Origin: Flavobacteriales bacterium
GTDB taxonomy: Bacteria > Bacteroidota > Bacteroidia > M30B66
Length of the DNA: 64,000 nt
NCBI GenBank assembly: GCA_046294625.1
Contig: JBKBKN010000002.1
Span: 24,250 to 88,249, forward strand
Reading direction: 5' to 3'
Shown here piece after piece: positions 1-24,260 of the stretch; position 1 is the stretch's first letter; the number at the start of each line of letters is the position of its first letter. A program made the position numbers and the translations under genes. The notes under the pieces are model-generated. The model ran no database searches and was not told the DNA's origin. It worked only from the letters and a program-made list of their open reading frames with translations.

Positions 1-3000
1 GGAATCAATACATCTGTAGTTGGTGTTGGAACAGTTCCGCAACCCCAGTTGGCAGGTGTATCCCAATCGGTGCCTGCACCCAGCCATTGACCAGGGAATT
101 CAACATTGAGCAATGATGCATCTGAAGTTGTTGAAGCCGGACAAACGCTGCTGTTCACAATCACACGATACAAGTATCCATTAAGGGCCGAACTTGCAGT
201 GAAGGATAAATTATCTGTATTGCTTCCGCTGTAAGTAGGTGCGGTAGCATTGTTCCAAGTGCTGCCATTGTCGGTTGAAAACTGCCATTGATAAGTCAAT
301 CCCAATCCGGAAACATTCACATCAATATTTACTAAAGATCCAGTACACACCGTTTGCTCATCAACCGGTTGCGCATCGATAAATGCAACACCAATAATAA
401 GCGTACCTTCATTAGAAATCAACTCTTCGCCGCAGGCATCAGTGATGATTAAACGATACTTATTCCCATTCAAGTTTGGCGGCGGAATATTGCTAAAGCT
501 CAGCAAATTGGTAGTTGCTCCACTGTATGGTGCAACATTCAATACGTCACTCCAACTAGTGCCACCGTCTGTACTTTCCTGCCACTGATAGGTTAATCCA
601 ACACCTGTAGCAGTTACAGAGAAATTAGTATTGCCACTGCAAATGGAGTTGATAAAGGTAATAGGGCTGTATCCCGTGATTTGAATTCCGGGAACTAAGG
701 TAAGCAATACCGCATTCGTTTGGCCATTGCCGCAGGCATTATTGGCCTGCAGTCGGTATTGATTGTTATTCATGCCCGAACTCACTGCGCTAATGTTGAG
801 CGTGTTGGTATTCACACCTGAATAGATACCGGCATTGCTCAGGTTGCTCCAGGTGGCACCTCCGTCGGTACTTTCCTGCCACTGAAAATTAATTGGATTA
901 AGACCAATTACAGTAGCGGTAAATGTTGCCGGTGCATTAGGGCAAATATCTAATTGATCTACCGGCTGCACGGTGACAATCGGTTGCAGACAGGAATTGA
1001 ACTCATCGGCACCAAAATCAGGCGCAAAAGGATCGCGTGGATCTCCATCTATATCATCAATCACAGATGCAAGCGGGGTGCCTTTGTTATCAATGAAATC
1101 AGATGCAGCCGGATTGGCGCTGGAAATACGCAGGTTGCCGAAGAGGAAGTCTGTTTCAAACAAATCTTCGGGATTCAATTGTGTATTGGCAATAGTAGTC
1201 GCCGCTACAGGCACGTAGTCGCTATTTGCATCGCCGCCAGAAGTGGTACGCCAGTTCGCAAAGGTCAAGTCAGTAGTGCCCCAGCGAGTAGCAACAGCTG
1301 AATTTAACGTAGCTACGAAATTGTAGTTCGATGCGCTACTGTTCCATCCGGTGGCAGGCACACTGGCATTGATATTTCCAATAGCGCGGTGCGAACCAAT
1401 GCCCGTTCTTCCATTGATAAAAATATTATTGCGCAAAGTTACCGGAGCCCCAGCTACCGTGCCGGTATTATTAGGAATACGCACATAACAATAACTTGGA
1501 TTGGCACCGCCTGCACCGCCATTTGTGCCATAGATGTAAACCGAATTGTAGAGATAATTAGCTCCCTGTCCGGTGAGGTTGCGCAAATGGTCTCGAATAC
1601 CATTTACCAAGGTGTTTCTAAAATCAATGTGCGTGCCGGTGGTGCCATTACGCAATGAAATCATGTTGTTAGACACTTCCCAGTTGCCATAATTCAGCAC
1701 CAGGCCGTTCACTTCAGGCGCATTGTTGGGCGAAGCTTGCCCTACATTGGCATTGGCTAAGGCGGCTATGGTATTTTTTCTGAAAATACCTCCGTGATTT
1801 TGCGCCTGGCCTAAAATACCCAGCATCGCGCCATGATTTCTCACGTTGGCGTTTGCTACAGCATTCAATTCATTGTTCTGAATCAGGTTGCCTTCCACCA
1901 GATTATTCATGGAATTGGTGTGCAGAAACAGGCTAATCATGCCTTCGTTAGATACCGCAGAATTTTGCAAGTTGCTAGAAGAGCGGTTGTTGGCAATCAC
2001 ATTGTTGCGAATGGTAGCTCCACCGCCTGGCGCATTGAACAATACATCGTTGAAGTACAAATTACTGCCATGCACAATACCATCGAGGAAACAGAAGGTA
2101 CCCAATCCGGTAGATAAGCCACTCACGATATTGTTTTCAATTACCACTTCTTCGGCCGATTGGGTCCAGATGCCCATCACAGCCGCATCTTGAGTTATAA
2201 ACGAGCCTCCGCTTCCGTTACTGATAATATTTTCCTGCGAATTATCCTCTGAACCAATCACATTACCCACTTCATCACCAATGCGCACTCTACCGTTTTG
2301 TACACGCATACCCACAAAATTAGTCCAACCGGTGCCTGAGATATTGAAGTTTTGAATTTTATTGCCTTGAATAGACAAAGCTTCGGCTTGCGTAGGCGAA
2401 TTACCCACATTGGCAAAAATCGCCACTACTTCGCCATCCACTTTATTATTCTCCCAGGTTCCTGTTATTTCAGGATTTGGCTTAGCACTTCCGCCGATTT
2501 TGTTACCGGAAATCACATGCCCGTTGGTTGTTCCATTGGCGTCGAGCACGATCGGATACTGATAGGTAGGTATCGTAAGTGTTTGATAAATGTTGTTGTT
2601 GGTAATGCTGATGTTGTTGCCAATGCTATTTGCTGCTGTTCCACCATTATCAGCTCGTATAGCTGAAGCCTGGAAGTTGAACATATCATTACCGGTAATG
2701 GTAATGTTGTTGATGTTGGCACTATTGTTTGCCCCACCCAAATAAATTAGGTTCATAGGCACATTGGTAAGAGTCGGTGTCACATTGCTCAGGTTGCGGA
2801 TTTCGTTGTCCTGAATGGTGATGTTGTTCAGGTTGCCGCTGGCAAAGCCCATACTGCCGCCGATGCGTACTACTCCCACGCTACCTGTGGTATTGTTGGA
2901 GTTGTTGATGTTGGCACCTTCGATGATGCAGCTGCGCAACACGTTGTTGTTCGCACCATTGTTATATTCCACAGTAGATGCATAAATCGAAGTCACCCTA

Positions 3001-6000
3001 TTGTGGCGCAAACGAAGGAATCTTCCATCACCATCAAAGCGACCATCAATAATTACCCTTCTTGCACCCAAGAAGCTAAACATGGCATTGGCAGCAAATG
3101 AGTTTGCTTCAACTGTATAAAGTGTAGGTGCATTCGGTCTGATAGTAATGGTGTAACCTGAGCCGCAGAATTCCTGAGGGGCATTCAATGGCGTCCAGTT
3201 GGCTGTTTCGTTGATATTCGAAATCACCAATACTTCCAAATCGCCGCTCAAACCGCGGGTATTGATGGCATGGAACAAACCTCCCGGATTCAGGTTGAAG
3301 CTGGGGAAATCACCGCCGGAACCTACCGTTACCGTACCACTCAAAGGATTGCTAAAGCTAAAGCTCGACGGTGCAGCAGGGTGGGTTACCGGATTGTTTA
3401 CGTTGTTATTGGTAAACGACACATTCGCATCGAAATGGCTTAATCCTAAGTTCGGGTTCACCGGATTAGTAGCCAAGTCTTGCGCTACAATGTAGTACTG
3501 ATAAGTTTCACCACCCACAGGGGTAATGGACAACAACGAGTAATCCAGTTCAAATTGCCAGTTGCCATTGAATTGGTTGCCTGAAACGAGCGTACCCGGC
3601 ACACTGGCCCATGCACTGATAGTAGGTGCACTGCGGCGGAAGTAAGCTCTTGGTCGATTCGCTCCTGTAGTAGGCACTCCAGCACCCCCATCGAAAATGG
3701 TGGCATCGAGCAAGGTGGTCACAGGGGTGGAACAAATCGCCGCACCCGATATAGGGGTAAAGGTAATTTGCGGCGGGAAGATATCGGTGCTCGGCACAAT
3801 GGCATTGAAGTTGGCCGCATCGGCTCCTATATCGGCCGGAGTGAAGTCGGCGCGGATTTCACCATCGAAATCTTCCACTACAGAAGCAATCAACACGCCC
3901 GAGCCTTCGGCAGGATTGCTGGCTTGCAAGTGCAGGTCAACTTGTGAAGCATTGCCTGTCGGATTCACAAAATTCGGATTGCCCACGCCGGACGTGATTT
4001 CAATGCCCTGCGTCAATAAGCCGAGGAAATTGAGCGGAGTGGTTCCGCCATTCACGCTTCCGATAGAACCGCCTGTTCCCGGAGAAAACAAGATGTTGAA
4101 ACCGCCGGTGTAAGTAGTCGTTGCATTGAGCGTCAGTGAATAATGAAGGCCTCCGGTGGTGGCATTGCTGCGGGCGTTGAGGAAAATGTTGTTGCGCACA
4201 TTATCAATACCAGTTGCTGTTCTGCGGAAAGCAAAAGTATTGGCAGCTCCCGAAACCACATTGGCTCCGCCGATATACACACTGTTGTGCCAGATGTTGT
4301 GGTTGTTTGCAGTTTCTTTCAAGATACCTTGAATGACGCGTGCGGCTGTGATGCTGTTACCGGCGGCATCAATGCCTAATCGCACCATGTTGTTGGTCAC
4401 GGTGGTTAATCCGCCGCCCAGCACGATACCATTCAACTGCAGGGCAGTGCTTGAGCTGGTGGCATTCAGGCTGTGTACAAAGTTACCATCCACCAAATTG
4501 GTGCCCGAAGTAGGCCCGTTGTAATAAATACCAGTTACAGTGGCTGCGGCTGATGCGTTGGTGTGAGTCAAGCCATATACAGTATTGCCTTTGAGTGTTT
4601 GTCCGGCCGAAGTGGAGCGGTGAGAGATACCAATTAATGCAGCTACTGCGCCCGTTTGTGCGTAAGGACTGGAAGTACTCAGACTATGCACCACATTGTT
4701 TTGAATCACGTTGTTGGCTGCTGCCGCACTCACTCTTTCAATACCTATAACACTGAAGGCATTGGTAGCTGAAGATGAAGTACCATTGGCCGTATAGTGA
4801 ATGTTGTTCACCAAATTGTTGCTCACTGTTGTAGGCCTTGCATTAGACACATGAATACCGGCTATGGTAGCGCCATTAGTAGCATTGAAGGTATTTCCGG
4901 TAGCATTGGTTAAGGGGGCATCTGCACTACCAATGGTATTGCCCGTTACAGTGATACTTTGCGAGATAGTAGAAGAACCTACCCTGATGCCATACATATT
5001 CACAATGTTGGCACTCGAGGTGGTATTGGATAGGTTAATGCCGCCGATGGTATTGTTTAGCACATTGATGGCTGCATTGCCACTATGGAAAATACCATGC
5101 ACATTGGTGAATTGTCCGGCACTGCAGGCGATGGTAATGCTGCCTGCATGCGTAAGGCTACCGATGGTATTGTTGCGAATTTCATATTCACCATTACTTC
5201 CCAAAATGCCCGTGAAGGTGGAGCCTTGGGTTTGGAAGCCAGTACCTGTGGTGATATTGAAATTACGAATCACATTATTTTCTACCACATTGCCCGCGGT
5301 AATGCCGGTGGACATGGAAATGGCCGAGAAGCGATAATCCTGTCCCGAAGCATTTACCTGCCAGGTGCCAATGGCATTGTCACTATTACCGCCAATGAAA
5401 TTATTGGTTACTACCATGTTGGCTGCGTTACCCGTGGCTGCACTCACCAAAATACCATACTTATCCGAAGTAGTAGTATGGGTGGCGGTCATGTAAATAT
5501 GGTTATCGCTGATGGTGTAATCGGAGTTGTGCGAATCAATATACACCGCGGCATGCGAACTGGTGGATGCCAAGTGGTAATTGTAGAAATGGTTTTGGCT
5601 GATGGTGACATTGTCATTCACGCGGGTGCTGGTACCGGCTGCATAAATCCCCGACGATGGTTGACCGGCTAAGTTGGTCAGGTTGCGGATGTGATTGTGC
5701 GAAATGGTGATAAAATCGTTTCCGCTGCCACTGGCCGATGCCGTAGAAATGCGAACGGCACCGTTGAGCGTACCTTGCGTACCTGCTTCAATATTTGCAT
5801 TGCGAATGGTGATGTTTTTCGCATCGTTAATCAAAGTAAAAGTGGAATTGAAGTTAGAAGCCGTAGTACTGTTGTTTCTGAACGTAAGGTGGCGTCCGCC
5901 CGCTGCTAAGTTGGAAGGATCGCGTCCATCAACAATAAAGCGGTCGGCACCGTTTATCCTGATCAAGCCAGCTACCGCAGCATTAGCACCCACATAATTG

Positions 6001-9000
6001 CCTTCAATCAAACGATCGGAATTGTTACTTGGGCGAAGCGTGAGCGTGTAGTTTCCTACACCAATTTCGGCCCATTCGTTCAGGGCATGTGTGCCTGATT
6101 CTGCCGTGAGATCGCTGATAATAGTAGCTGTAACGTTCCCGCTCAATGTAGCTTGGTTCACAATATCAAACAATCCACCGGGATTGGTGATGGATGGGAA
6201 TACCCCACCGTTACCCACAGTGTAGTCTCCATTGAGAATGAGTGGAGCTGTCATCAAGCAGGTTGGCGGTGGGCCACCAAACATCGAAACATTGTCCAGC
6301 TTCACGCTAAACAGGTTGCTGTTGTTGTAGCCATTGCGTGGCTCGGCATAAAAGAAGATGGCTGATTTATCCACCACCGATGAGATATCGAAGGTCACTT
6401 CTAGATTCACGCAGTTGCGCAGCTCGTTGAAAGGAATGAACCGGCCATTGATATCGGTTTGGCTCACTTCTACCCCATTGATTTTGATGGATGTGCAAGC
6501 GCCGTTTACAAATTGATTGTCGGCCCACATGTAAAAGCGCATTCTGTCCAAAGGCTGTGAAACAAAAAAGGAATGCGACACATCGAGGAACATTTTCATG
6601 CTGGTGTTTCCGGTGCAATTCACCAAAGGCGTACGCAAGAAACAGCTGAAGAAATTGGTGAAGGTACCCGAGCGGCCCACATGGCCATCGGGACAACCAT
6701 CAGTAGCCGAATACAATAAACCACCTGTGGTGCAAGTAGAAGGCGACCAGAAGACATTGGATGGGCCTGTAGGGCCAACTGTACTAAAGTTGGCATTGTT
6801 GGTGAATGGCTCCACCGGCAATACATTACCCCCAAGACCTTCGCGCACATCGCCATCATTGTTGCGGGCACGTGCATAGAAACAATACTCTGTATTGGCC
6901 TGCAAACCGATGATAGTAGTAGTACCCCATGCAGCCATGGTTTGGAACACTTCCGTAGCTCCTAAGCTTCCATCGGCTTGCACGAATTGGTTGGTCGCCG
7001 GGCTAAAGATGGAGTAAGTGGTTGTAGCCGGATTGGCCGTTGGCGTTTCCGGTTGCAAGCTTACATCCATGGTAAATGGGGTAGCATTGCTTAGCACCAC
7101 CGGAGCCGGCGCATCAGCCGCTGTATGAATCGGGAATGTTGATCCATTGGTCCAGTTGCAAGAAGTTGGCCCAAATACACTGCGCACACGATAATAGAAA
7201 GGTGCATTGGGTGAATCGCCGGTATTGTGCGAGAAGGAAGTATTCAATCCGGTGTATAAGCTGTTCCACGTAAGGTTATTTGTCGAAAACTCTACTTCAT
7301 AAGCAGTTACCCCGGCCACGCTCGACCAGTTGAGCTCGATAAAATGCGATGGGCCATTGGCTGGATTGCCAATTGTAGGCGTGAGCGTGGTAGGTGAGTT
7401 TTGTACCTGCACATTCACAGCGCTTGGTAAACTTTTAATACAATCAGGCTGTGTGCTGCAGCGGGCATTCACGGTATAAGTGGTGTTAGCCATCGGTGCA
7501 TTGAAATTGATGTTTTCATAAGCACTGTTGAATACCGGCGTAGCCAAAGCAAATGCTGTTCCGTTCCAGAACAAGCTGCCATTGCTCCAGGAATATTCCC
7601 AAGTGCCGGAGCATCCTGAACCTCCACTTGGATTTGCCGCTAAAGTCACCGCTGAACCATTGCATACGGTAATGCTTGATGGTGTGGCATTGGCAGTGGC
7701 TGAAAGCGTTGGCCCGTTGCCGGCAATAAAGTTACCGGAGTGCGCACCAATATCAGTCGGTGTGAGTGTGCTGCGGTCGTTGCCGTCGAAGTCAATGTTG
7801 ATGGCCAGAGATGTTCCGTTACCTTCGGCAGCGCTGTATTGCGTGGTGGAAATGCGCAAATTCACATTGGCCGAATTGCCGTCGGCATTGATGAAGGATG
7901 GGTCGCAAGCCAAACTATTGGCATCCTGATTGGTGGCCGTTTGCCAATTGAGCAAAGTAGCATAATCAGTAGTGGCTATGAATCCGGTGAAACCGCCCGT
8001 GCCACCGGCATTCAGAATATTGAAATTGGAATTGTTGGCAGGGCTGGTAAAGTTGGTCACACTGTTAGCCGAAATAGCATAATGCTTCCCGGTGCCCGAA
8101 ACATTGGAGCGAGAATTGTTGAAAATGTTGTTCTTGATGTCGAGCGCAGCCGTATTAGCCTGACGAGAGAAGGCTATCGAATTGCCCGAACCGGAAGTGG
8201 TGCTTCCACCAATATGCACGGAGTTGAAGTAATATTGATGTCCGGCAGTGGCAGAATGATGCGAGAAACCAATGATAAATGGACTATTGGCCACACTGTT
8301 GCCGTTCACATCTATCCCCAAACGAATCATATTGTTGTGATACGTGGCCACCCCGGTCAGGGCCATCACACCCATTAAGCTGGCCGATGAATTAGTGCTT
8401 GGCGTATTGAAACTATGGATAAGGTTGCGCGAAACTTCGTTGGTTCCTGTGGCATTTCTAAACAGAATACCCAATGCCTGAGTAGCCGCAGTAGTGGAGC
8501 TATTTTCCAAGCCATAAATGGTATTTTGCGAGATCAACTGTCCGGCGCTGTTGCTGCCCTGATTAATTCCTATCAAAGTGGCTGTGAGCCCCGAACCAGC
8601 CGAAGTGGAATTGTTCACCAGCGAGTGAAGGGTATTGCCCGTAACGCTGCTTACCCCCCCTGACAGGTTGATTCCTATCAGTTGGTAAGTCGTGGTAGAG
8701 CCGGTGTAAGCTAAAGTAAGGTTGCGAATGGTATTGTTGCTGATGGTCGTATTTCCGGCCACTTGCGAAATACCAATCAATGAAGTGGCTCCGGCTGTCG
8801 TGAGCGTTTGCATATTTGAAATGGTGTTTCCGCTCACCGTAGCATTTCCCGAAGTAATATAAATACCATGGATCACATTGGCATTAGTGGTTTGGTTTTC
8901 GGTCACGCTGATCAGGTCAATCAGGTTGTTGGAGATGGTATTGGCAGCGCCTACCGAATTAATACCGGCAAAAGCAATGGCATTGGCTGCCGTGCCTCTC

Positions 9001-12000
9001 GACAGATTAATTCGGCGAATGGTATTGCCGCTCACTACAGAATTGCTCGAAGCTGCATTGGGATTCAGGAAAATTGCCTGATAAGATTGATTCACCGCGC
9101 CGGTAATGGTCATGTCCGTACCGCTGGAGTTGGCTTGCGTGCCTCCGATATGGTTATCACTGATGGTGTAGTTATCGCCGGTATTGTTCACCTGAATCCC
9201 GTATTTAATCACAGCTCCGGTACCAGTACGATCGGCATTTTGGTAAATGGAGTTGCCGGTGATGGTCCAAGCAGAATTGTTGGTGCTTACCCATATGGCG
9301 CTCGAAGTCTGATTAGGACTCCAAATATTGAAAAGTTCATTTTCCAGAATGGAAATATTGTCGTTTTCACGCGTAGCGGTACCCAAAGCAAAAATTCCGT
9401 TTGCGGGAAGGCCTGCCGATTCTTTAATATGGTTGTTGCGAATGGTGATGTTGTCATTACCATTGCCTGCTCCGGCGGTGCCAATGCGAATTACTCCATT
9501 GGTAGCGCTGGTTGAGGCACCTTCTATAATACTGTTGCGCAAAGTGTGATTGGTCGCATCGTTGATGTAAAGGAAGGTGGCATTAAAGTCCGAAGCATTG
9601 GTATTGTTGTTTACAAAACGTAGGTGGCGACCATTGGCAGCCATATTGTTGGGGTCGCGACCATCAATCACTACCCTATCTGCACCATCGAAACGGAACA
9701 AGCCCGCCACAGCGGAATTTGCCCCAATATAGTTGCCCGAAATGGTTCGGGCGGTATTGTTGCTTGGACGAATGGTGAGGGTATAATTGCCCGCACCCAA
9801 TTCTACCCATTCGTTTAGGGCATGCAAGCCGGATTCGGCTGTAAGGTCAGAAATGATCTCTGCCACCAAATTGCCTGATAATGCAGCATTGTTGATGGAT
9901 TGAAATAAGCCACCAGCATTGGTAATAGAAGGATAGGTTCCACCTGAACCTACGGTTACCACACCTGACAAAACATTAATCAAATAGCTGTTGATGCTGC
10001 CAGTGGCCGGGAAATTGGCAGCAGTGAGCACCACTGAATTAGGCGTAGTATTGAAAGTGGCAGCATTCACAGCAAAATTGGGCGTTGCAGCCACATCTTG
10101 CGCTACCACAAAATATTGTATGGTTTCCCCACCGCTTACCCCACCGCCAAACAGCAAAGTGTAATTGATGCTGAAATCAAACGGAGAAGTAGATGAGGAA
10201 GACTCTATAAACTTCCAGCCATTGGTGGCCGAAGTATTATCCACAAAAGTATTGGCATCGGTGCTGCGTTTGTAGTAAATTCGAGGCGCCAGACCCGGTG
10301 TAGTTTCCACCGCAATGTTATCGGTAATGGTAGCCGAGAAAGGGGGTGGCGTCAATACGGTTTGCGTGCCAATGGGGGTGTAGGTAATCACGGGAGGCGT
10401 AAAGTCAAGTCCGCCGAAATTGTTTTCATCAGCGCCGATGTCAGGAGCTGTACCTGTGCCCGCATAGCCTACCCCGCCAAAGCGAACATCGCCGTCGTAG
10501 TCAATGTAGATATTCACATCCACCCCGCCGCTTTCGGCCTGTGTCGGAATAGCAGTATCCAGACGAAGATTCACTAAAGTAGCATTGCCAGTGGCATTGA
10601 GGAAAGGTGGATTTTCGTTAAACGAGTTGGCATCTAATCCGCTCAACTGCCAATCGGCAATGGTGGTGCGTTGAGTAGCCACCTGCAAGCCCACATGGCC
10701 GCCTGTGCCTCCGGCAAACAAGATGTTGTTGGTAGAAGTTACTCCGGCAATGGAATTAGTTAAGCCAATGGCATAGTGCGCTCCGGTGCCTGCCCCATTG
10801 CTGCGGTTGTTCACAAAAATATTGTTGCGCAACACAGTGGCGGCTGTTCCTGCTGTTTTACCGAAGGCAAATGTATTATTGGCATTGGCTACACCTGTTC
10901 CACCCACAAATACTGAGTTGAAGAAGTAGCTGATGTTGGCTGTGGTAGAAAGGTGATGAATACCGTAGGTGAGCAAACCTTGCGTCACACTATTGCCATC
11001 GCCATCAATGCCCATACGAATTTTGTTATTGCTAATGGTGGCTTGCCCGGCAATGAAATGAATACCGCGAATCACCGCGGTGGTGCCGGTGGTGGCGCTG
11101 GATAAACTATGCACAAAATTATTCGAAATATCGTGAATAGGCGTTGTTCCGGCAGAAAACACAATACCGCTGATATTCACTGCCGCCGTGCCGGTGGTGG
11201 TGCTGCGCAAGTTAAATACGGTATTGCCTCTAATGATTTGAGGCGATGTCGTAGTGCTGCTAATGTCGGCAATACCCACCAAGGCCGCATTTGCATTGGT
11301 AGAAGTAATGGTGGTGGTTGCCGAAAGATTACTGATAGTGTTATTGGTGATTACATTGATTCCTGTGGTGCTTGTGGCAATACCACGCATGTAGGTAAGC
11401 CCCAAATTGCCTGAATAAACATTGCTGATGTTGTTGATGGTATTGCCATCTGCAATTGCATTGCCTGATGAACCAAGAAATATACCGGTAAAGCCTACAG
11501 CACCGCCTGCACCGGTAAATGAAATACCTGAAATGGTATTATTTAAAATGGTGTCGATGCCGGCGGTGATTTGAATACCAAATGCCTGGCTGGCCGTGGT
11601 GGTGTTCCAGTTGCTGGCTATACTGATGCTACCGGCTGCCCCACCGATGATATTGTTCTCTATATTGTTGTTACCCGCATCGCTTTTTATACCAGCAAAA
11701 AGTATGGCATTGGCAGCTGCACCATGTGCGAAATTCAGGTTGCGAATGGTATTGTTTTCTACTATACAATTAATAGCAGCATTGGCCGGATTCAATTGAA
11801 TACCAATGAACGATTGATTTACATTACCGAGAATTGTCCATGGCGAACCGGCTGAAAGCGCTTCGCTGCCACCAATGTGGTTATTACGCAGGATAAAATT
11901 ATCGCCGGTGGTATTAGTTACTTGAATACCGTATCGAGCTACTGCCCCTGTTCCGGTTCTGGAAAAGGTTTGATAAAAGCTATTATTCTCAATGGTCCAG

Positions 12001-15000
12001 GCAGAATTAAATCCTGCGACAAAGATTCCGTTGTTGCTCACCCCCGGTTGCCAGAAATTGAAAATTTCGCAGTTGCTAACGGTAATGTTATCGTTTTCAC
12101 GACCAGTGGTGCCTAAAGCATAAATACCATTGGCAGGAGTTCCTGCTGCATCGCTGCGGTCGCGGATGTAGCAATTGTCTATGGTGATAAAATCATTACC
12201 CGAACCGGTAGCCAAAGCGGTACTGAAGCGAATTACCCCGTTGGTGGCACTGGCAGTAGCGCCTTCGGCGATAATATAGCGCATGGTGTGGTTTTGGGCA
12301 TCATTTACATAGTTGAAAGTTCCTGCCCATGCCCCTGTATTGATATTTCTAAAGGTCAAGTGACGGCCACCCGCTGCCTGATTGGCCGGATCACGCCCGT
12401 CAATAATCACGCGGTCGGCTCCATCGAAGCGAATCAAGCTTGAATTAAGCGCCGTAGTCCCGGTATAAGTTCCTGAAACCAAACGGTTGGTATTGTTATT
12501 GGGGCGAATGGTAAGGGTGTAATTGCCCGAGCCAATCTCTAACCACTGGTTTAGAGCATGTGTCCCACTTTCTGCTGTCAGGTCAGAAATGATTTCGGCA
12601 ATCAGATCGCCGCTCAAAGCTCCGGTATTGATGGCTTCAAACAATCCACCGTTGTTTGTGAGTGACGGATACATCCCTGATGTTCCAACTGTTACCACAC
12701 CCGACAATACATTAATGAAATAGCTATTGATGGTGCCGGTAAGCGGGAAGGCAGCGGCAGTAAATGCCACGCTCGAAGGTGCCGCATTAAAAGTGCCACT
12801 GTTGATACCCACATTAGGCACCGGTGCGATGTCCTGCGCTACCACAAAATATTCGATGGTTTCGCCTCCTGAAGGTACTCCACCAAAAAGTAAGCTGTAG
12901 TCAATGTTGAAGGTAAAGGGTGAAGACGCCCCTGTGGCTTCTACCCATTTCCAGCCATTGGTGGCCGATGTGTTGTTCACGAAGGTGTTGGCATTGCCTA
13001 AATATTTGTAATACAGGCGAGGACGTGTGCCACTGCTGCCGTTCACCCCGCTGATGTCGGTGATGGTGGCTGTGAGCGATGGAGGCGTGAGCACCGTTTG
13101 CGTAGGAATAGGAGTATAATTGATGTTGGGTGGGGTGAGGTCGGCCGGAATAAAGTTACCTTCGTCAGCGCCCACATCAGGTGCTGTACCTTCTATATCG
13201 CCTACAATGGGATAGGGCCCGCGGGCATCGCCATCAATGTCTATGCTCACCGATGCAATCACCGTTCCTGCGCTCTCTATCTGGGCCGGAACAGCTGAGT
13301 CTATGCGCAAATTCACCTGCGAAGCATCGCCCAATGCATTAACAAAGGGCACCGGACCATAGATAGAATTGGCATCGTTGCCAAACACATTTTGCCAATC
13401 GCCAAGGCCGGGATATTGCGTAGTGGCAATGATCCCCACTCTACCATTTTGCCCATCAGCCTTGTAGAGGTTAAAATTACTTATCACTCCGGCGCTGGTG
13501 CTTAAGCCCATGGCAAAATGCTCTCCGGTTCCCGAGGTTTGCGCGCGGTCATTGATGAAAATATTGTTGCGAACGTCCAATGCCGAAGTGCCTGCCAATC
13601 GGTTGAAGGCAAAGGTATTGGTCGTACCCGAAGCTACTTCGCCGGCGAGCAATACGGTATTGTAATAGTACTGATTGTTGGCAGTAGTAGAAGAATGGCG
13701 AATTCCCATGATGCTTATGGGATTGGTAATAGCATTTCCATCGCTGCTCAAGCCTAAGCGAATCATATTGTTGTGGTATGTAGCCATCCCTGATAGTGCA
13801 TTGATACCCAATTGCGCCGCAGCCGCATTGTTAGAAGCTGTATTAAAGCTATGGATGGTATTACGGCTTATAGCATTAGCACCAGAAGTGGGACCGGTAT
13901 AGTGAATGCCGATAATGCTGTTGGCCACTGTAGTGTTTGTAGTCGAAAGTGTATGAATTATGTTTTGACTGATGTTTTGCCCTGGTAGAGTGCGCTGAAA
14001 TTGAATACCGATATTAACCGAATTGGCATCTATCCCAGTGGAAGCACTCGCAACGCTCAAACTAAAAATGGTGTTTCCGGTTATAGTGAATCCACCTGCT
14101 GCTGATGCGTTGGTGGCAATGCCACGAATATTGCTGGCAGCAACAGCCGAAACCGCGTTATTAGTAAGGTTGGCAATGGTGTTATTGCTGATGGTATGTG
14201 CAGTACTTGCTGCCGTACTTAAGTAATTGATCCCATTCAAAAATTGACCTGAGCCATTGGTGCTGGCCGTGATGCAGTGAATGCTATTGGCCAAAGTGCT
14301 ACTGCCTATGGTGTTTTCGTTCACAGTGCAAATCCCCCCTGAAATCAATATCCCATTGAAACTATGCCCTACACCAGCTACCGAGCCCGCCAGAGTAATT
14401 CCAGAAATCGTATTTCGTTCGATGGTACTGTTGCCTGCTAAATTGATGATGCCATTGGATGTGGATGGAGTGGTAGCAAAATTTTCTGTATTGGTAATAT
14501 TGCCATTAGCAGAAGTAGAGCCGATAAGGTTATCAGCAATCAAACCCGCCCCGTTGGCATTTCTAATACCTACAAAGGATACAGCTGTAGAACTCGTGCC
14601 TCGGGAGAAACTGATGTTCGCCACCACATTGCTGTCCACTACGCATCCTGTGGCAGTGGTAGCGGGATTTAAGTCTACTCCAAAAAAGGTACCCGCCCCA
14701 ACACCCGTGTAGGTTAAAGCTGCACCGGCAGCTAATGGCTCCGAACCCCCAATATAGTTGTGGCGCACCGTGAAGTTATCGCCGGTGTTGGAGATGGAAA
14801 CAGCTGTATGAGTAAATGTGGTTCCATTAGCTCGGCTCACGGTTTGATAGAAGCTGTTGCGTTCTATAGTCCAGCCGGTACTGTTGGCTCCGATACTCAC
14901 CCCTGAATGGGTAGATGCCGCATTCACATAGTAGTTTCTGATGTTATTCCAGCGAATTATATTGTTCTCATTCAAGGCGCCTGCTGTTCCAGATGAGTGA

Positions 15001-17888
15001 ATTCCATTAGCCGGAGTGGCATTGTTAGCCGTATTCTCGCGGATTTCGCAGAATTCAATAAGGTTTTCACTATTGCCCCCTAGTAAGGTGGTGGAAGTGC
15101 TGAATAAGATGGTTCCGCTGGTGGTAAGTGTATTCTGACTTTCAATGTTCAGGTAGCGCAACACATTCGCAGTGGCGCCGTTGATAAAGCGAAAAGTGGG
15201 GTCGAAAGTTGCCGTAGACCGGGCATTTCTAAAGCCCCACTGAATAGGGCCGCTGCCGCCAGCACGGCCATCGAATGTCAATCGGTCTATGCCGTTTAAG
15301 TTAATCAACGCGCTTGTTGTAGAAGGTATTCCGGCTGTTAACAGGTTTACGCTACCGGCCGCAGGACGAATCGTCACCGTATGCGCAGGGCCATTGGTGG
15401 TGAATTCGGTAAAATTAACCGGATAGGCCGGTTCGCCGCTGTAAGTGGTAGGTAATTCGAAAATTACGTTTCCGGTTACCAATTGGATGCGGAGTAAATC
15501 GGCAATTACTGTAAGGTTTAAGGCCGGAACTACACCGCTCAAAGTGCTTGATGTGCCGATGGTGTAAAAGGCATTCTGATTGGTGTTGTCAATGGTATTG
15601 CTAAGCACCGAAGTGATGCTAGCTCCGATGTTCGTTCCCCCTTGGTTGGCGTAAGCGCCGGTGATGGTATTGGAATAGCCCACACGCGAATCGCTCAGCA
15701 ATCCGGCAATTTCCAACTCCACGGTGTAATTCACAGGGTTGGTGCCGGCCATGCGCTCCACGCGCCAATGATAGGGTTGAATCGAAGATAATCCACCGCC
15801 AGCTGAGCCTCCCGGAGCGGCATTAACATGTTGCACGCGCAATTGCACGCCCGAAGCCGCTGCAGACGTAATCATGCTATAGCCGCCAAATTGTGCTCCA
15901 TCCCCAACCGGAAAACGGTAGGTGCCCACCGCATTGATAGCTCTGGTCAGGGGGCCATTCACATAGCTCGTAGCATCACCACCAATAATAGCGGTTGCAG
16001 GTGTAGCGTTTAAAACACTCAATACATTAGTGGTGGTGGTGGTAAGAATACCGGACGTTAAGGTTAAAATTCCATTGGCAGGCAAATCGCGTGCAGCATG
16101 CAGCGTGACTCCATTGGGATTGTTGATGGTTAACCTTCTTGGACCATTTGTGGCAGGAAATTCATTGTTAGCAGAAGTTTGAGCTGCAATACCTTCATAA
16201 GTCAAAGTACTTGCTGTAGCATTTGTAAAAGATAAGGTATTTGCCACCCTTCCGCTTCTGATGCGCACATTCACGCCATTGCCACTTAAGGTGGGATTAG
16301 TGAAGGTCAATTCATCCGTATCATTCACCAAATCAAGCAAAATAAAACCTGTTGTAGCCGCCGGTTGGCCATTACCGGTTACTTGGCCGTTGGTGCCGGT
16401 GTAAATAAGATTAATACCTGCATTGTATGTTCTCGTGCCTGTACTTTGAATATTGCCCGTTGCACCGGTGGTGGTGATTCCATCCTGAGAGCCCAAACTC
16501 AATGTTGAGCCCGCTACTGTGGTAAAGTTGCCGGTATTATTTAATACACCGCTGGGACCAAAAATGGCATGAGCAGTGGCATTCATGGCTACGGGTGCGG
16601 TAAACGTTAAAGTGTTGTTTCCAAAATTAACCGTTGAGCCTGTGATGTTGACGTTAGAAAAAGTTCCTAAAATATCAGCCTTGGCCGCATTGTAGGTGGT
16701 ATTGCCATTGAGAAAGATGAAATTTCTATTGCCGGTGGCTGTGGTACTGTTGATTTGCCCAGTAAAATTGCCCGTTTGGGTAAAATTGCCCGAAAGATTG
16801 ATTACTTCCGTTTGAGTGGTTAATCCACCACGGTACTGAATAATGTTAGTATGCACATTGTTCTGTGCCAGAATGATTTCCAAGTTACCATTTATGGAAA
16901 GGGTATTCGTGAATGCGGTTGTGTTTTGTGTGTAGGCCGGACTGTTTAAAATAAGCTGAGCATTGGCATTTGATGTATTGTTAACGGTCACGTTATTGAC
17001 GGTAAGGATTTGAGTTGCAGCGAGCGTACCTTTAGTCGCAAAACGCCCGCCGGTAATGATTAGATCACCCGTATTGCCTGTGGTCCAATTACGTGTACCA
17101 AAATTATTACCTACAATTTGATTATTTGTATTTCTAAATTCAAAAGAATTTACTGAAATCGGAAAGGTCGCTAAATTGATTTGCGTGCTTTGTGCAGGGC
17201 AATCCCAAACTACTTTACCAAAGTTTTGATTCAAACCCGCAGGAATTCCTGTAGTAACTCCGGTAATATTAAGGTTTGACTCTACACTCCAGTTGGCTGT
17301 AGGTACCGTTAAGGCTGTGGCGCTGTTATAAGTGTAAGTAGCATTGTCTTCAAAGACTAAAGTAGCCACAGAGCCATTTATGGCACCACCAAAATGATTT
17401 ATCACCCCGGATGCAGACACCGTAACTATTGTTGAACCTACCGCAGTGGTCGTAAATGCACCTGCCCTTACAGTCAAAGTCCCTGAAATAAGTCCCCGCT
17501 GATTGGCAGTGGTAGCTATAGTGATGGTCAGTGCATTTGTGGCTGATGTTTGTAATGTTGATCCAGCTTCAACCAAGAAATTGTCATCGAAACCTGGACC
17601 ATTAATGGTTAAAGTGGTGGTCCCAGAAGAGGTCAAGGTAACGTTGGTATTGTTAGTCACCAAAAGTTGCCGTATCGTTTGCGTTGGAACTGCAGTGACT
17701 ACATGTGTGCCTCCATCATTGAATCGGAGAATATCCGTCGCAGCAGGAGTAGTTCGGTTAGGCGACCAATTAGCTGCTACTGCCCAAGAGCCGTTGCCTC
17801 CGTTCCAAGTGTAGGTGGTTTGGGCATGGATAGACAGTGAAAAAAAAACAAAAATTGAAAATACTACAAAGCGTATTGTTAGGTGCAT
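1..17888 (-). CDS. Giant secreted cell-surface protein, N-terminal ~5,962 aa (3' end beyond the window): signal peptide, 5 parallel beta-helix (PbH1-like) super-modules each ending in D[IF]GA[DH]E (choice-of-anchor-Q-like), Ig-like linkers, and 3 C-proximal Ig-like repeats. Probable adhesin / T9SS-type cargo; the C-terminal domain is not in the window.
   Basis: The minus-strand frame is open from the ATG (complement of 'cat' at 17886-17888) to position 3, with a partial codon at 1-2. The ORF track lists no minus-strand ORF fragment in this frame, consistent with there being no in-window stop. The translation starts MHLTIRFVVFSIFVFFSLSIHAQTTYTWNGGNGSWAVAANWSPNRTTPAATDILRF... and keeps a sensible repetitive domain composition throughout. 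Recurrent motifs: GNYTLTIRP (5 times), DGRDPxNxAAxGRHL, NNTI(S/R)N.., DIGADE / DIGAHS / DFGADE, TPPxIxYTPI..QTVLTPP, YQWQESTDGGxxW. Confidence 0.9.
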   Translation of the reverse strand, partial: MHLTIRFVVFSIFVFFSLSIHAQTTYTWNGGNGSWAVAANWSPNRTTPAATDILRFNDGGTHVVTAVPTQTIRQLLVTNNTNVTLTSSGTTTLTINGPGFDDNFLVEAGSTLQTSATNALTITIATTANQRGLISGTLTVRAGAFTTTAVGSTIVTVSASGVINHFGGAINGSVATLVFEDNATYTYNSATALTVPTANWSVESNLNITGVTTGIPAGLNQNFGKVVWDCPAQSTQINLATFPISVNSFEFRNTNNQIVGNNFGTRNWTTGNTGDLIITGGRFATKGTLAATQILTVNNVTVNNTSNANAQLILNSPAYTQNTTAFTNTLSINGNLEIILAQNNVHTNIIQYRGGLTTQTEVINLSGNFTQTGNFTGQINSTTATGNRNFIFLNGNTTYNAAKADILGTFSNVNITGSTVNFGNNTLTFTAPVAMNATAHAIFGPSGVLNNTGNFTTVAGSTLSLGSQDGITTTGATGNIQSTGTRTYNAGINLIYTGTNGQVTGNGQPAATTGFILLDLVNDTDELTFTNPTLSGNGVNVRIRSGRVANTLSFTNATASTLTYEGIAAQTSANNEFPATNGPRRLTINNPNGVTLHAARDLPANGILTLTSGILTTTTTNVLSVLNATPATAIIGGDATSYVNGPLTRAINAVGTYRFPVGDGAQFGGYSMITSAAASGVQLRVQHVNAAPGGSAGGGLSSIQPYHWRVERMAGTNPVNYTVELEIAGLLSDSRVGYSNTITGAYANQGGTNIGASITSVLSNTIDNTNQNAFYTIGTSSTLSGVVPALNLTVIADLLRIQLVTGNVIFELPTTYSGEPAYPVNFTEFTTNGPAHTVTIRPAAGSVNLLTAGIPSTTSALINLNGIDRLTFDGRAGGSGPIQWGFRNARSTATFDPTFRFINGATANVLRYLNIESQNTLTTSGTILFSTSTTLLGGNSENLIEFCEIRENTANNATPANGIHSSGTAGALNENNIIRWNNIRNYYVNAASTHSGVSIGANSTGWTIERNSFYQTVSRANGTTFTHTAVSISNTGDNFTVRHNYIGGSEPLAAGAALTYTGVGAGTFFGVDLNPATTATGCVVDSNVVANISFSRGTSSTAVSFVGIRNANGAGLIADNLIGSTSANGNITNTENFATTPSTSNGIINLAGNSTIERNTISGITLAGSVAGVGHSFNGILISGGICTVNENTIGSSTLANSIHCITASTNGSGQFLNGINYLSTAASTAHTISNNTIANLTNNAVSAVAASNIRGIATNASAAGGFTITGNTIFSLSVASASTGIDANSVNIGIQFQRTLPGQNISQNIIHTLSTTNTTVANSIIGIHYTGPTSGANAISRNTIHSFNTASNNAAAAQLGINALSGMATYHNNMIRLGLSSDGNAITNPISIMGIRHSSTTANNQYYYNTVLLAGEVASGTTNTFAFNRLAGTSALDVRNNIFINDRAQTSGTGEHFAMGLSTSAGVISNFNLYKADGQNGRVGIIATTQYPGLGDWQNVFGNDANSIYGPVPFVNALGDASQVNLRIDSAVPAQIESAGTVIASVSIDIDGDARGPYPIVGDIEGTAPDVGADEGNFIPADLTPPNINYTPIPTQTVLTPPSLTATITDISGVNGSSGTRPRLYYKYLGNANTFVNNTSATNGWKWVEATGASSPFTFNIDYSLLFGGVPSGGETIEYFVVAQDIAPVPNVGINSGTFNAAPSSVAFTAAAFPLTGTINSYFINVLSGVVTVGTSGMYPSLTNNGGLFEAINTGALSGDLIAEIISDLTAESGTHALNQWLEIGSGNYTLTIRPNNNTNRLVSGTYTGTTALNSSLIRFDGADRVIIDGRDPANQAAGGRHLTFRNINTGAWAGTFNYVNDAQNHTMRYIIAEGATASATNGVIRFSTALATGSGNDFITIDNCYIRDRSDAAGTPANGIYALGTTGRENDNITVSNCEIFNFWQPGVSNNGIFVAGFNSAWTIENNSFYQTFSRTGTGAVARYGIQVTNTTGDNFILRNNHIGGSEALSAGSPWTILGNVNQSFIGIQLNPANAAINCIVENNTIRNLNFAHGAAANAILFAGIKSDAGNNNIENNIIGGAAGSISIASNWNTTTASQAFGIQITAGIDTILNNTISGISFTGAGGAVGFTGIFLGSSGNAIADGNTINNISNVYSGNLGLTYMRGIATSTTGINVITNNTISNLSATTTITSTNANAALVGIADISSTTTSPQIIRGNTVFNLRSTTTGTAAVNISGIVFSAGTTPIHDISNNFVHSLSSATTGTTAVIRGIHFIAGQATISNNKIRMGIDGDGNSVTQGLLTYGIHHLSTTANISYFFNSVFVGGTGVANANNTFAFGKTAGTAATVLRNNIFVNNRSNGAGTGAHYAIGLTNSIAGVTSTNNILFAGGTGGHVGLQVATQRTTIADWQLSGLDANSFNENPPFLNATGNATLVNLRLDTAIPTQAESGGVDVNIYIDYDGDVRFGGVGYAGTGTAPDIGADENNFGGLDFTPPVITYTPIGTQTVLTPPPFSATITDNIAVETTPGLAPRIYYKRSTDANTFVDNTSATNGWKFIESSSSTSPFDFSINYTLLFGGGVSGGETIQYFVVAQDVAATPNFAVNAATFNTTPNSVVLTAANFPATGSINSYLINVLSGVVTVGSGGTYPSITNAGGLFQSINNAALSGNLVAEIISDLTAESGLHALNEWVELGAGNYTLTIRPSNNTARTISGNYIGANSAVAGLFRFDGADRVVIDGRDPNNMAANGRHLRFVNNNTNASDFNATFLYINDATNHTLRNSIIEGASTSATNGVIRIGTAGAGNGNDNITIRNNHIKESAGLPANGIFALGTATRENDNISILENELFNIWSPNQTSSAIWVSTNNSAWTITGNSIYQNADRTGTGAVIKYGIQVNNTGDNYTISDNHIGGTQANSSGTDMTITGAVNQSYQAIFLNPNAASSNSVVSGNTIRRINLSRGTAANAIAFAGINSVGAANTISNNLIDLISVTENQTTNANVIHGIYITSGNATVSGNTISNMQTLTTAGATSLIGISQVAGNTTISNNTIRNLTLAYTGSTTTYQLIGINLSGGVSSVTGNTLHSLVNNSTSAGSGLTATLIGINQGSNSAGQLISQNTIYGLENSSTTAATQALGILFRNATGTNEVSRNLIHSFNTPSTNSSASLMGVMALTGVATYHNNMIRLGIDVNGNSVANSPFIIGFSHHSATAGHQYYFNSVHIGGSTTSGSGNSIAFSRQANTAALDIKNNIFNNSRSNVSGTGKHYAISANSVTNFTSPANNSNFNILNAGGTGGFTGFIATTDYATLLNWQTATNQDANSLACDPSFINADGNSANVNLRISTTQYSAAEGNGTSLAINIDFDGNDRSTLTPTDIGAHSGNFIAGNGPTLSATANATPSSITVCNGSAVTLAANPSGGSGCSGTWEYSWSNGSLFWNGTAFALATPVFNSAYENINFNAPMANTTYTVNARCSTQPDCIKSLPSAVNVQVQNSPTTLTPTIGNPANGPSHFIELNWSSVAGVTAYEVEFSTNNLTWNSLYTGLNTSFSHNTGDSPNAPFYYRVRSVFGPTSCNWTNGSTFPIHTAADAPAPVVLSNATPFTMDVSLQPETPTANPATTTYSIFSPATNQFVQADGSLGATEVFQTMAAWGTTTIIGLQANTEYCFYARARNNDGDVREGLGGNVLPVEPFTNNANFSTVGPTGPSNVFWSPSTCTTGGLLYSATDGCPDGHVGRSGTFTNFFSCFLRTPLVNCTGNTSMKMFLDVSHSFFVSQPLDRMRFYMWADNQFVNGACTSIKINGVEVSQTDINGRFIPFNELRNCVNLEVTFDISSVVDKSAIFFYAEPRNGYNNSNLFSVKLDNVSMFGGPPPTCLMTAPLILNGDYTVGNGGVFPSITNPGGLFDIVNQATLSGNVTATIISDLTAESGTHALNEWAEIGVGNYTLTLRPSNNSDRLIEGNYVGANAAVAGLIRINGADRFIVDGRDPSNLAAGGRHLTFRNNSTTASNFNSTFTLINDAKNITIRNANIEAGTQGTLNGAVRISTASASGSGNDFITISHNHIRNLTNLAGQPSSGIYAAGTSTRVNDNVTISQNHFYNYHLASTSSHAAVYIDSHNSDYTISDNHIYMTATHTTTSDKYGILVSAATGNAANMVVTNNFIGGNSDNAIGTWQVNASGQDYRFSAISMSTGITAGNVVENNVIRNFNITTGTGFQTQGSTFTGILGSNGEYEIRNNTIGSLTHAGSITIACSAGQFTNVHGIFHSGNAAINVLNNTIGGINLSNTTSSANIVNMYGIRVGSSTISQSITVTGNTIGSADAPLTNATGNTFNATNGATIAGIHVSNARPTTVSNNLVNNIHYTANGTSSSATNAFSVIGIERVSAAAANNVIQNNVVHSLSTSSPYAQTGAVAALIGISHRSTSAGQTLKGNTVYGLTHTNASAAATVTGIYYNGPTSGTNLVDGNFVHSLNATSSSTALQLNGIVLGGGLTTVTNNMVRLGIDAAGNSITAARVIQGILKETANNHNIWHNSVYIGGANVVSGAANTFAFRRTATGIDNVRNNIFLNARSNATTGGLHYSLTLNATTTYTGGFNILFSPGTGGSIGSVNGGTTPLNFLGLLTQGIEITSGVGNPNFVNPTGNASQVDLHLQASNPAEGSGVLIASVVEDFDGEIRADFTPADIGADAANFNAIVPSTDIFPPQITFTPISGAAICSTPVTTLLDATIFDGGAGVPTTGANRPRAYFRRSAPTISAWASVPGTLVSGNQFNGNWQFELDYSLLSITPVGGETYQYYIVAQDLATNPVNPNLGLSHFDANVSFTNNNVNNPVTHPAAPSSFSFSNPLSGTVTVGSGGDFPSFNLNPGGLFHAINTRGLSGDLEVLVISNINETANWTPLNAPQEFCGSGYTITIRPNAPTLYTVEANSFAANAMFSFLGARRVIIDGRFDGDGRFLRLRHNRVTSIYASTVEYNNGANNNVLRSCIIEGANINNSNNTTGSVGVVRIGGSMGFASGNLNNITIQDNEIRNLSNVTPTLTNVPMNLIYLGGANNSANINNITITGNDMFNFQASAIRADNGGTAANSIGNNISITNNNIYQTLTIPTYQYPIVLDANGTTNGHVISGNKIGGSAKPNPEITGTWENNKVDGEVVAIFANVGNSPTQAEALSIQGNKIQNFNISGTGWTNFVGMRVQNGRVRIGDEVGNVIGSEDNSQENIISNGSGGSFITQDAAVMGIWTQSAEEVVIENNIVSGLSTGLGTFCFLDGIVHGSNLYFNDVLFNAPGGGATIRNNVIANNRSSSNLQNSAVSNEGMISLFLHTNSMNNLVEGNLIQNNELNAVANANVRNHGAMLGILGQAQNHGGIFRKNTIAALANANVGQASPNNAPEVNGLVLNYGNWEVSNNMISLRNGTTGTHIDFRNTLVNGIRDHLRNLTGQGANYLYNSVYIYGTNGGAGGANPSYCYVRIPNNTGTVAGAPVTLRNNIFINGRTGIGSHRAIGNINASVPATGWNSSASNYNFVATLNSAVATRWGTTDLTFANWRTTSGGDANSDYVPVAATTIANTQLNPEDLFETDFLFGNLRISSANPAASDFIDNKGTPLASVIDDIDGDPRDPFAPDFGADEFNSCLQPIVTVQPVDQLDICPNAPATFTATVIGLNPINFQWQESTDGGATWSNLSNAGIYSGVNTNTLNISAVSSGMNNNQYRLQANNACGNGQTNAVLLTLVPGIQITGYSPITFINSICSGNTNFSVTATGVGLTYQWQESTDGGTSWSDVLNVAPYSGATTNLLSFSNIPPPNLNGNKYRLIITDACGEELISNEGTLIIGVAFIDAQPVDEQTVCTGSLVNIDVNVSGLGLTYQWQFSTDNGSTWNNATAPTYSGSNTDNLSFTASSALNGYLYRVIVNSSVCPASTTSDASLLNVEFPGQWLGAGTDWDTPANWGCGTVPTPTTDVLI
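100..985 (-). repeat. Three tandem ~290-nt (~97-aa) Ig-like domain repeats at the C-proximal end of the in-window part of the giant protein.
   Basis: Translations: ...INFQWQESTDGGATWSNLSNAGIYSGVNTNTLNISAVSSGMNNNQYRLQANNACGNG..., ...TYQWQESTDGGTSWSDVLNVAPYSGATTNLLSFSN...GNKYRLIITDACGEE..., ...TYQWQFSTDNGSTWNNATAPTYSGSNTDNLSFTASSALNGYLYRVIVNSSVCPAS... The period is ~290 nt (plus-strand landmarks at ~870, ~585, ~285). Confidence 0.65.
1015..13180 (-). repeat. Four tandem in-frame super-repeats (~2.7-3.9 kb each) inside the giant gene, diverged. Approximate module spans: 1015-3830, 3830-7750, 7750-10440, 10440-13180. A fifth, more divergent module lies at ~13180-16000.
   Basis: The same conserved stretches recur at ~3140-3350, ~6030-6130, ~9770-9860 and ~12500-12600 (e.g. 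ggtaagggtgtaattgcccgagccaatctct... vs ggtgagggtataattgcccgcacccaattct...). By eye, 9541-10400 and 12241-13100 are ~75-80% identical. The protein-level TLTIRP and D-I-G-A-D-E landmarks recur with the same spacing. Confidence 0.75.
17840..17848 (-). repeat. Homopolymeric tract: A9 on the plus strand, which is T9 on the coding strand, within signal-peptide codons ~16-20 of the giant gene.
   Basis: Plus strand ...agtga aaaaaaaa ca aaaattg... Coding strand TTT GTT TTT TTT TCA (F V F F S). Confidence 0.8.
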
Positions 17889-17913: not shown

Positions 17914-17921
17914 CAAAATTA
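17914..17921 (-). promoter_or_regulatory. Candidate Bacteroidota sigma-A -7 element (TAATTTTG, matches TAnnTTTG) for the giant gene, ~25 nt upstream of the ATG.
   Basis: The minus-strand sequence upstream of the ATG reads ...taatatttacTTAATTTTGtgacctttttgttaaaaacttaagtATG. It lies in an AT-rich 175-bp intergenic region. No experimental support. Confidence 0.3.
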
Positions 17922-19316: not shown

Positions 19317-19453
19317 ATTCAAATCCTATCCCTAAATATTTATTCCAAGCCATAGTAATCATAGTGTATCCATGATTTTTCAATTGGCACTTCATTGCAA
19401 AATGAGCAATCCATTCAACCGAAATACCACTCATAGGAAGCGAATATTCAGAT

Positions 19454-21470: not shown

Positions 21471-21570
21471 ATTATAATTGAGTTGAATTGCCAAGCGAAA
21501 CTACATATTTAACAATAGCCGCAAGAAAAATCTTAAAACAATCTGAGTTAAATTTCATTTACAAAGTTTC

Positions 21571-24244: not shown

Positions 24245-24260
24245 AAATTAAAACTTCGAA

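Follow-up and report, generated by a model that had tools for sequence, protein, structure and literature searches.

A giant gene of a Flavobacteriales bacterium predicted to encode a T9SS-secreted beta-helix surface protein

The first 17.9 kb of the 64,000-nt stretch of Flavobacteriales DNA analysed here (the window) raise the question of what they encode, since the supplied ORF track reported only antisense shadow ORFs of 157-215 aa within this region. The original prediction was that an uninterrupted frame runs on the minus strand from an ATG at positions 17886-17888 to the window edge, and that it specifies a giant secreted surface protein built of beta-helix modules. To answer the question we considered the reality of the gene, the architecture and fold of its product, its relatives and its probable role.

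The reading frame and its genomic setting

Translation of complement(3..17888) bore out the proposed frame: its 5,962 codons contain no stop and form a single open frame. This frame begins with the ATG at 17886-17888, and 33 nt before it, at 17921, lies an in-frame stop. Given the base composition of the coding strand itself, the probability of finding no stop in 5,962 codons is ~1e-130, and the remaining five frames across the same region contain 154-499 stops apiece. The frame is unclosed at window base 3, which indicates that the gene is truncated by the window at its 3' end; the part within the window (3..17888, minus strand) corresponds to the N-terminal ~93% of a predicted protein of ~6,430 aa, whose 3' end lies beyond window base 1. 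The gene is indeed missing from the ORF track, as had been pointed out, because the track omits ORFs running off either end. Its absence is therefore a matter of the listing rule and not of biology.

The GC content of the giant gene (46-50%) differs from that of the rest of the window (~41%), and this step prompted us to consider horizontal acquisition. The excess sits at codon position 2 (0.498 vs 0.348) and thus reflects the amino acid composition of the protein, which is rich in N, T, G, A and S, while its synonymous codon preference is that of 24 neighbouring genes (r = 0.93). Horizontal acquisition was rejected on these grounds. The remaining window is ordinary chromosome, with genes for ParC, SodA, YchF, LysA, methylmalonyl-CoA mutase and transporters.

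The source genome is a MAG and repetitive genes misassemble readily, so that the long frame could also be non-functional, either a chimera that assembly produced from repeated modules or a pseudogene in decay. A related gene, L080, on a JGI contig from an old metagenome assembly, is in fact broken by frameshifts into many fragments. Such an origin is at odds with 17.9 kb free of stop codons. DNA repeats within the giant gene do not exceed 58 nt and are 60-81% identical, which makes a repeat-collapse artefact unlikely, and the encoded modules, at 33-68% identity, are likewise too diverged to collapse or chimerise. Furthermore, modules, insert and Ig-like triplet occur in the same order in two independent assemblies. 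This alternative is close to refuted, and we give it almost no weight. Recent tandem duplication, or a phase-variable repeat number, was also rejected since the DNA repeats are too short and too diverged. Altogether, the giant gene is confirmed as a genuine, chromosomal gene of the Flavobacteriales bacterium.

An intergenic gap of 174 bp separates the giant gene from the upstream gene. Within it, TAATTTTG (17914..17921, minus strand), located 25 nt upstream of the ATG, matches the Bacteroidota -7 promoter consensus TAnnTTTG. This consensus is not enriched across the window (50 occurrences found, 62 expected), and the match, which is statistically not meaningful, is weak evidence that is consistent with a putative promoter. 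Scans for sigma-70 promoters and terminators upstream of the gene scored no better than shuffles, and a search of Rfam over the whole window returned no RNA family. The upstream neighbour in the window encodes an endonuclease, dnaE lies upstream of the related gene P0159, and ABC transporter genes are found downstream in the relative L001. A conserved operon partner was rejected because the neighbours in the window, in L001 and in L082 all differ. No T9SS or gliding components were found encoded in the 64-kb window; the T9SS is usual in the order Flavobacteriales.

Domain architecture and predicted fold

All features described below lie on the minus strand. The predicted Sec signal peptide comprises aa 1-22 (17823..17888; MHLTIRFVVFSIFVFFSLSIHA, followed by QTT) and was assigned by eye and by hydropathy. 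It has an Arg at position 6, a 14-residue hydrophobic core with a mean Kyte-Doolittle value of 2.64, and ends in IHA before Q, in agreement with the claim of a signal peptide; the equivalent position in P0159 reads ...AAQA, followed by QTTYTW. No other TM-like stretch is present in the protein. The N-terminal module (aa 23-781; 15546..17822) consists of a beta-helix, which opens with the motif TYTWNGGNGSWAVAANWSP, and a beta-sandwich (FPVGD region) C-terminal to it.

Five super-modules of ~900 aa each follow, matching the number originally proposed. By self-BLAST they are paralogous, with 33-68% identity, and they were delimited with a module HMM built from 42 aligned sequences. Super-module 1 (aa 782-1727; 12708..15545) was identified by self-BLAST and by HMM matches at aa 791-1195 and 1200-1726. 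Super-module 2 (aa 1728-2639; 9972..12707; HMM match at aa 1728-2637) is ordered as a cap, a predicted right-handed parallel beta-helix of ~18 rungs, the end motif D.DG..R...DIGADE and an Ig-like beta-sandwich. Super-module 3 (aa 2640-3390; 7719..9971; HMM match at aa 2640-3435, 690 bits) is up to 68% identical to super-module 2. Super-module 4 (aa 3885-4848; 3345..6236) is covered by two HMM matches, at aa 3885-4383 and 4309-4836, and super-module 5 (aa 4849-5632; 993..3344; HMM match at aa 4849-5725, 260.8 bits, of which 4849 to ~5640 is counted as the module) is the most diverged copy.

Super-modules 3 and 4 are separated by an insert (aa 3391-3884; 6237..7718) that contains an Ig-like domain rich in Cys, a pair of fn3-like domains (24.6 bits, cutoff 25) and an orphan domain of ~190 aa, termed X (aa ~3690-3885), with six invariant Cys. 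Domain X had no Pfam or PDB match at E≤10, and the insert is conserved in L001, P0159, P0177 and P0274. Super-module 5 is followed by three Ig-like repeats (aa 5633-5930; 99..992) with the motif YQWQxSTD and an internal identity of 48%, which are conserved in L001 and P0159 and matched the I-set profile with 22.8 bits (cutoff 23.7). The I-set and fn3 scores both fall just below their cutoffs and, together with the structural match described below, agree with the Ig-like domains that had been postulated. The last residues encoded within the window (aa 5931-5962; 3..98) mark the start of a C-terminal tail module. Their motif GQWLGAGTDWDTPANWGCGTVP weakly repeats the beginning of the N-terminal module, whose HMM matches aa 5933-5961. 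The 481-aa tail of L001 matches the same HMM with an E value of 2e-13, suggesting that the giant protein is bracketed by two related modules.

The original prediction had proposed profile searches for a beta-helix and had held that a lack of such matches would refute it. When the whole protein and eight domain-sized pieces were compared with Pfam and NCBIfam, neither the N-terminal module nor any of the five super-modules gave a match at E≤0.5. This includes PF13229 (Beta_helix), PF05048 (NosD) and the NCBIfam choice-of-anchor Q models, and for the modules there was no NCBIfam match of any sort at this threshold; L001 yielded a PF13229 match with an E value of 0.005 that is below cutoff. Profile searches of the PDB with module, N-terminal, insert, C-terminal and X-domain queries gave one weak match, to a 'parallel beta-helix repeat protein', and otherwise only T9SS CTDs, which homologues in the profiles had contributed. 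All of the proposed beta-helix profile tests were thus negative, so that about 5,000 residues of the giant protein lie outside every curated family.

The fold nevertheless emerged from structure prediction, which had been suggested for individual modules. AlphaFold2 modelled super-module 2 from the 42-sequence alignment with a mean pLDDT of 90.3 and a pTM of 0.85. It consists of beta structure throughout: 54 short strands across residues 92-680, amounting to ~18 three-stranded rungs, precede a beta-sandwich. The predicted fold is a right-handed parallel beta-helix of the pectate-lyase-like type, made of stacked three-stranded rungs, and it is visible by structure prediction only and not by sequence profiles. 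Lower-scoring structural matches of the model were Pel9A, PL6 lyases and PfbA, with which Foldseek agreed, and in the Foldseek search the beta-sandwich at the end of the module additionally matched an Ig-like domain, that of PPAD from P. gingivalis. The N-terminal module was modelled with moderate confidence (pLDDT 79.6), and its best structural match was CBM89 (7jvi), followed by adhesins and autotransporter passengers.

Relatives, full length and secretion

Two related genes are colinear with the giant gene. L001, from the Bacteroidia MAG SJ364, shares 50.7% identity over ~3,700 aa, and P0159, a complete protein of 5,533 aa from a Logan contig of 21 kb, shares 52-58% along its entire length. 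P0159 lacks one module of ~880 aa and has four modules where the window protein has five, which indicates that module copy number varies even among close relatives. The homologue listing contained no protein longer than ~1,600 aa, and giant relatives became visible only through a search of cluster representatives. An exhaustive phmmer search with super-module 2 against 1.84 billion representatives retrieved 4,071 at E≤1e-3, 2,033 of them at E≤1e-30. Among the best 150 of the 4,071, 89 are at least 3,000 aa and 17 at least 5,000 aa long, the longest having 6,424 aa, and each carries about 2 to 7 module equivalents.

Proteins with a single module, annotated as 'T9SS type A sorting domain-containing protein' or 'beta strand repeat-containing protein' and including Ignavibacteriota and Acidobacteriota annotations, are true homologues (E values down to 1e-123); they differ from the giant protein, in which five modules are chained and combined with accessory domains. 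Such chaining is itself common. The giant protein is large but not exceptional, an ordinary member of an abundant family, and attention to giant genes has been described as beginning at >10,000 aa (10.1101/2023.11.21.568195). We found no paper describing this ~900-aa module family, which is large, uncharacterised and without a curated model. Asp-Ser/Thr dipeptides, the core of the Bacteroidota O-glycosylation sequon, are strongly avoided family-wide.

The relatives also bear on how the protein ends. L001 continues for 481 aa past the equivalent of the window end and closes with TIGR04183 (39.9 bits, cutoff 23) and PF18962, and P0159 continues for 467 aa and scores 29.3 bits against TIGR04183. 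Six more complete giants matched TIGR04183 with 27-44 bits, so that all seven complete giant relatives tested were positive, and PF18962 is very frequent in relatives with a single module or with the N-terminal module only. From the tails of L001 and P0159, which are ~470-480 aa longer, the full window protein is predicted to have ~6,430 aa. By homology, it is probably a type A T9SS cargo whose sorting domain is encoded just beyond the window, as originally anticipated together with a length above 6,000 aa. In the T9SS, recognition of a type A CTD by the translocon is followed by its cleavage by PorU, after which the new C-terminus is attached to anionic LPS or the protein is released (PMC10202324).

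The earlier description was accurate in essentially all structural respects, and our results support its reading of the product as a giant, T9SS-secreted surface protein with beta-helices. T9SS cargoes that are large, repetitive, beta-helical and located at the surface are a kind already known, and biologically this is another large surface adhesin candidate and no new kind of system. Annotators gain an identification for the window's largest gene, which is confirmed as real. Standard profile libraries are blind to about 5,000 of its residues, and the gene clearly exemplifies a very abundant beta-helix module, covered by no curated model, that makes up many of the largest T9SS cargoes of environmental Bacteroidota. 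With a curated model for the family, thousands of 'hypothetical' giants could be better annotated.

Binding stalk, enzyme or gliding adhesin

Across the 42 module sequences, 105 columns are conserved at a level of at least 75%, and 75 of these are G, I or N. The conserved Gly, Ile and Asn columns form a pattern of rungs and an Asn ladder. The only charged conserved columns are D103, R635, D692, D736 and R742, all of which are located at the caps and, except for D103, in C-terminal cap motifs (RSN..GTG.HYA, DANS and D.DG..R...DIGADE). Neither a conserved His, Glu or Lys nor a conserved catalytic cluster was found among the 42 sequences, and no CAZyme-type Pfam or NCBIfam match was obtained at E≤0.5. 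The Gly/Ile/Asn conservation and the lack of a CAZyme-type profile match favour a structural or binding role over an enzymatic one, and as judged from sequence conservation a rigid, non-catalytic adhesin or stalk appears more likely than an enzyme. The explanation that we regard as best, and as reasonably probable, is that the gene encodes a T9SS-secreted beta-helix surface fibre of ~6,430 aa which functions as a non-enzymatic binding stalk. In this sense we infer that the giant protein is an adhesin.

Such a fibre would be assembled as follows. The predicted signal peptide would direct the protein through Sec to the periplasm, where the type A sorting domain expected beyond the window, as found in the two colinear relatives and in the complete giants, would hand it over to the T9SS. 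By analogy with other type A cargo, PorU would then remove the sorting domain and join the new C-terminus to anionic LPS, resulting in C-terminal anchoring. With the C-terminus anchored in this way, the N-terminal module would come to lie distally. The modelled folds suggest a stiff, segmented stalk of five tandem right-handed parallel beta-helices of ~18 rungs, with Ig-like, fn3 and beta-sandwich domains as spacers. Its length is estimated at ~100 nm, assuming 4.8 Å per rung and ~4 nm per sandwich domain, and gain or loss of whole modules would alter it. The stalk would display the distal N-terminal beta-helix, which in its model resembles non-catalytic carbohydrate-binding and adhesin beta-helices, and the Cys-rich insert domain. 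Its likeliest role would be non-enzymatic binding of polysaccharide, particles or other cells.

Comparison with known beta-helix proteins sets limits to these resemblances. CBM89 (PDB 7JVI) is a non-catalytic beta-helix xylan-binding module of a GH10 enzyme from a capybara-gut Bacteroidaceae member. It shares 9% identity with the N-terminal module and was not retrieved at E≤10 when the sequence profile of that module was searched against the PDB, revealing no sequence relationship; moreover, CBM89 is appended to a glycoside hydrolase, whereas the giant protein has no detectable catalytic domain. For the autotransporter passengers Vag8, pertactin, Pet, Hap and Hbp, identity is 9-16%. Autotransporters use type V secretion through their own C-terminal beta-barrel, while the giant protein is expected by homology to carry a T9SS sorting domain. 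A type V autotransporter was rejected, as the colinear relatives end in a T9SS CTD and not in a barrel and no autotransporter family matched.

Two other functions have to be weighed against a binding stalk. The giant protein could be a multi-catalytic polysaccharide-degrading enzyme, in which every module is a catalytically active member of the pectate-lyase-like superfamily (lyase, glycosidase or epimerase) and the tandem array is displayed at the surface against a complex glycan. Many of the top structural neighbours of the modules are indeed polysaccharide lyases, hydrolases and epimerases, with PL6 alginate lyases, the AlgE4/AlgE6 epimerases, Pel9A, GH87, GH110 and phage depolymerases among the fold neighbours, and active sites specific to single lineages would not show as family-wide conserved columns. 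Many CAZymes are, moreover, secreted by Bacteroidota through the T9SS (PMC10202324). The pectate-lyase-like enzymes and NosD proteins nevertheless differ from the giant protein, which matches neither of their profiles (PF13229, PF05048) and whose modules show no family-wide conserved catalytic residues in the 42-sequence alignment. With this pattern of conservation and no CAZyme-type profile match, we consider an enzymatic function unlikely.

Even less probable, in our view, is a SprB/RemA-like gliding adhesin, a giant filament that is propelled by the gliding machinery and pulls the cell over surfaces. SprB of Flavobacterium johnsoniae is likewise giant (>6,000 aa), repetitive and located at the cell surface of a Flavobacteriia-class bacterium, which it reaches through Sec and then the T9SS. 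The window protein comes close to it in size (~6,400 aa), belongs to a Flavobacteriales lineage and is a T9SS cargo by homology, and the adhesin RemA has a type A CTD (PMC10202324). SprB itself, however, has a type B CTD and needs the product of the cognate adjacent PorP/SprF gene (PMC10202324), whereas the relatives of the giant protein have type A CTDs. Neither a type B CTD (TIGR04131/PF13585) among the relatives nor an adjacent PorP/SprF gene was found, no SprF-like gene being present upstream in the window, downstream in L001 or upstream in L082. SprB repeats or a lectin domain were not detected either. The occurrence of single-module relatives among Ignavibacteriota and Acidobacteriota annotations also speaks against this function, since these phyla are not known for SprB-type gliding.

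Returning to the binding stalk, a more far-reaching version can be put forward as a speculation that we think improbable as a whole. Here, the ~900-aa module would define a very large beta-helix family without a curated model or a studied member, and its copy number, between 1 and at least 7, would set the length of the stalk like a ruler, holding a CBM89-like binding tip and the six-Cys domain as far as ~100 nm away from the outer membrane. The Asp-Ser/Thr avoidance would then reflect selection that keeps giant cargoes unglycosylated for T9SS transit. Apart from this speculation, points of note in the giant protein and its family are the orphan domain X with its six cysteines, the paralogous modules at the two ends and the avoidance of Asp-Ser/Thr dipeptides.

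Modular architecture of the giant protein

The giant protein is colinear with P0159, a complete relative from a Logan contig, which contains one ~880-aa module fewer (4 vs 5). Comparison with P0159 and the related locus L082 placed this whole-module difference at window ~9000-10400 (-), and about 1-7 module equivalents per protein were found across the family. As judged from these sequence comparisons, close relatives differ in copy number by whole modules.

The opening motif of the N-terminal module (window 15546-17822, (-)), G.W....NW..P, was seen again at aa 5933-5961 (window 3-98, (-)). Furthermore, an HMM of the N-terminal module matched the tail of L001, the colinear homologue in the Bacteroidia MAG SJ364, at L001 11198-12640, which follows the equivalent of aa 5933-5961 (E 2e-13). 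At the sequence level, paralogous modules are thereby placed at both ends of the giant protein. An N-terminal module joined to the C-terminal sorting domain (CTD) is, moreover, frequent as an architecture of standalone T9SS cargo.

Modules 3 and 4 are separated by a region in which two fn3-like domains are followed by an orphan domain of ~190 aa, named X (aa ~3690-3885; window 6234-6821, (-)), that carries six invariant cysteines and is kept in L001, P0159 and two further relatives (P0177 and P0274). Domain X found no match in a Pfam search or, at E<=10, in a PDB sequence-profile search, and we consider it a candidate ligand-binding domain.

Asp-Ser/Thr avoidance

Over its whole length (window 3-17888, (-)), the giant protein is strongly depleted of Asp-Ser/Thr dipeptides, with 41.5 expected and 9 observed, and it contains 3 copies of D[ST][AILVMT], the O-glycosylation sequon of Bacteroidota, compared to ~18 expected (z -3.8). 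The avoidance is likewise present in L001 and relatives from the range P0156-P0189; it is common to 11 of the 13 giant relatives checked (z -2.9 to -5.5), the remaining two, P0200 and P0204, lacking it. The pooled cytoplasmic proteins encoded in the window showed no such depletion (z -0.7). Selection against periplasmic glycosylation could have caused this avoidance; alternatively, it could merely stem from fixed structural contexts of Asp.

Neighbouring genes

Upstream of the giant gene by 174 bp, and on the same strand, lies a DNA/RNA non-specific endonuclease gene (PF01223; window 18063-19322, (-)), whose product has its own signal peptide and a C-terminal extension of ~130 aa without domain assignment. 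Neither for this predicted secreted nuclease nor for a second one, an endonuclease of the ExeM/NucH extracellular type (window 58612-59682, (-)), was an association with the giant gene seen among relatives. Divergent from the block holding the giant gene is a cluster of a MoxR-type AAA ATPase and two multi-domain PPIC-type peptidyl-prolyl isomerases, one of them SurA-like (window 22205-27498, (+)), whose products are candidate periplasmic chaperones. Four ORFs of 207-477 aa were profile orphans in the sole library scanned for each, namely Pfam for 20871-21494 (-) and 24289-25185 (+), and NCBIfam for 36270-37205 (-) and 52009-53442 (+).

Giant relatives in databases

A related giant gene, its N-terminal module 59% identical, was found on L080 (JGI 3300003281, contig Y607_1002122), where apparent frameshifts split it into >10 separate called genes, exemplifying how giants are lost from protein databases. 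Among the matches listed in the protein homologue search the longest relative had ~1,600 aa; the cluster-representative search returned many relatives of 3,000-6,400 aa.
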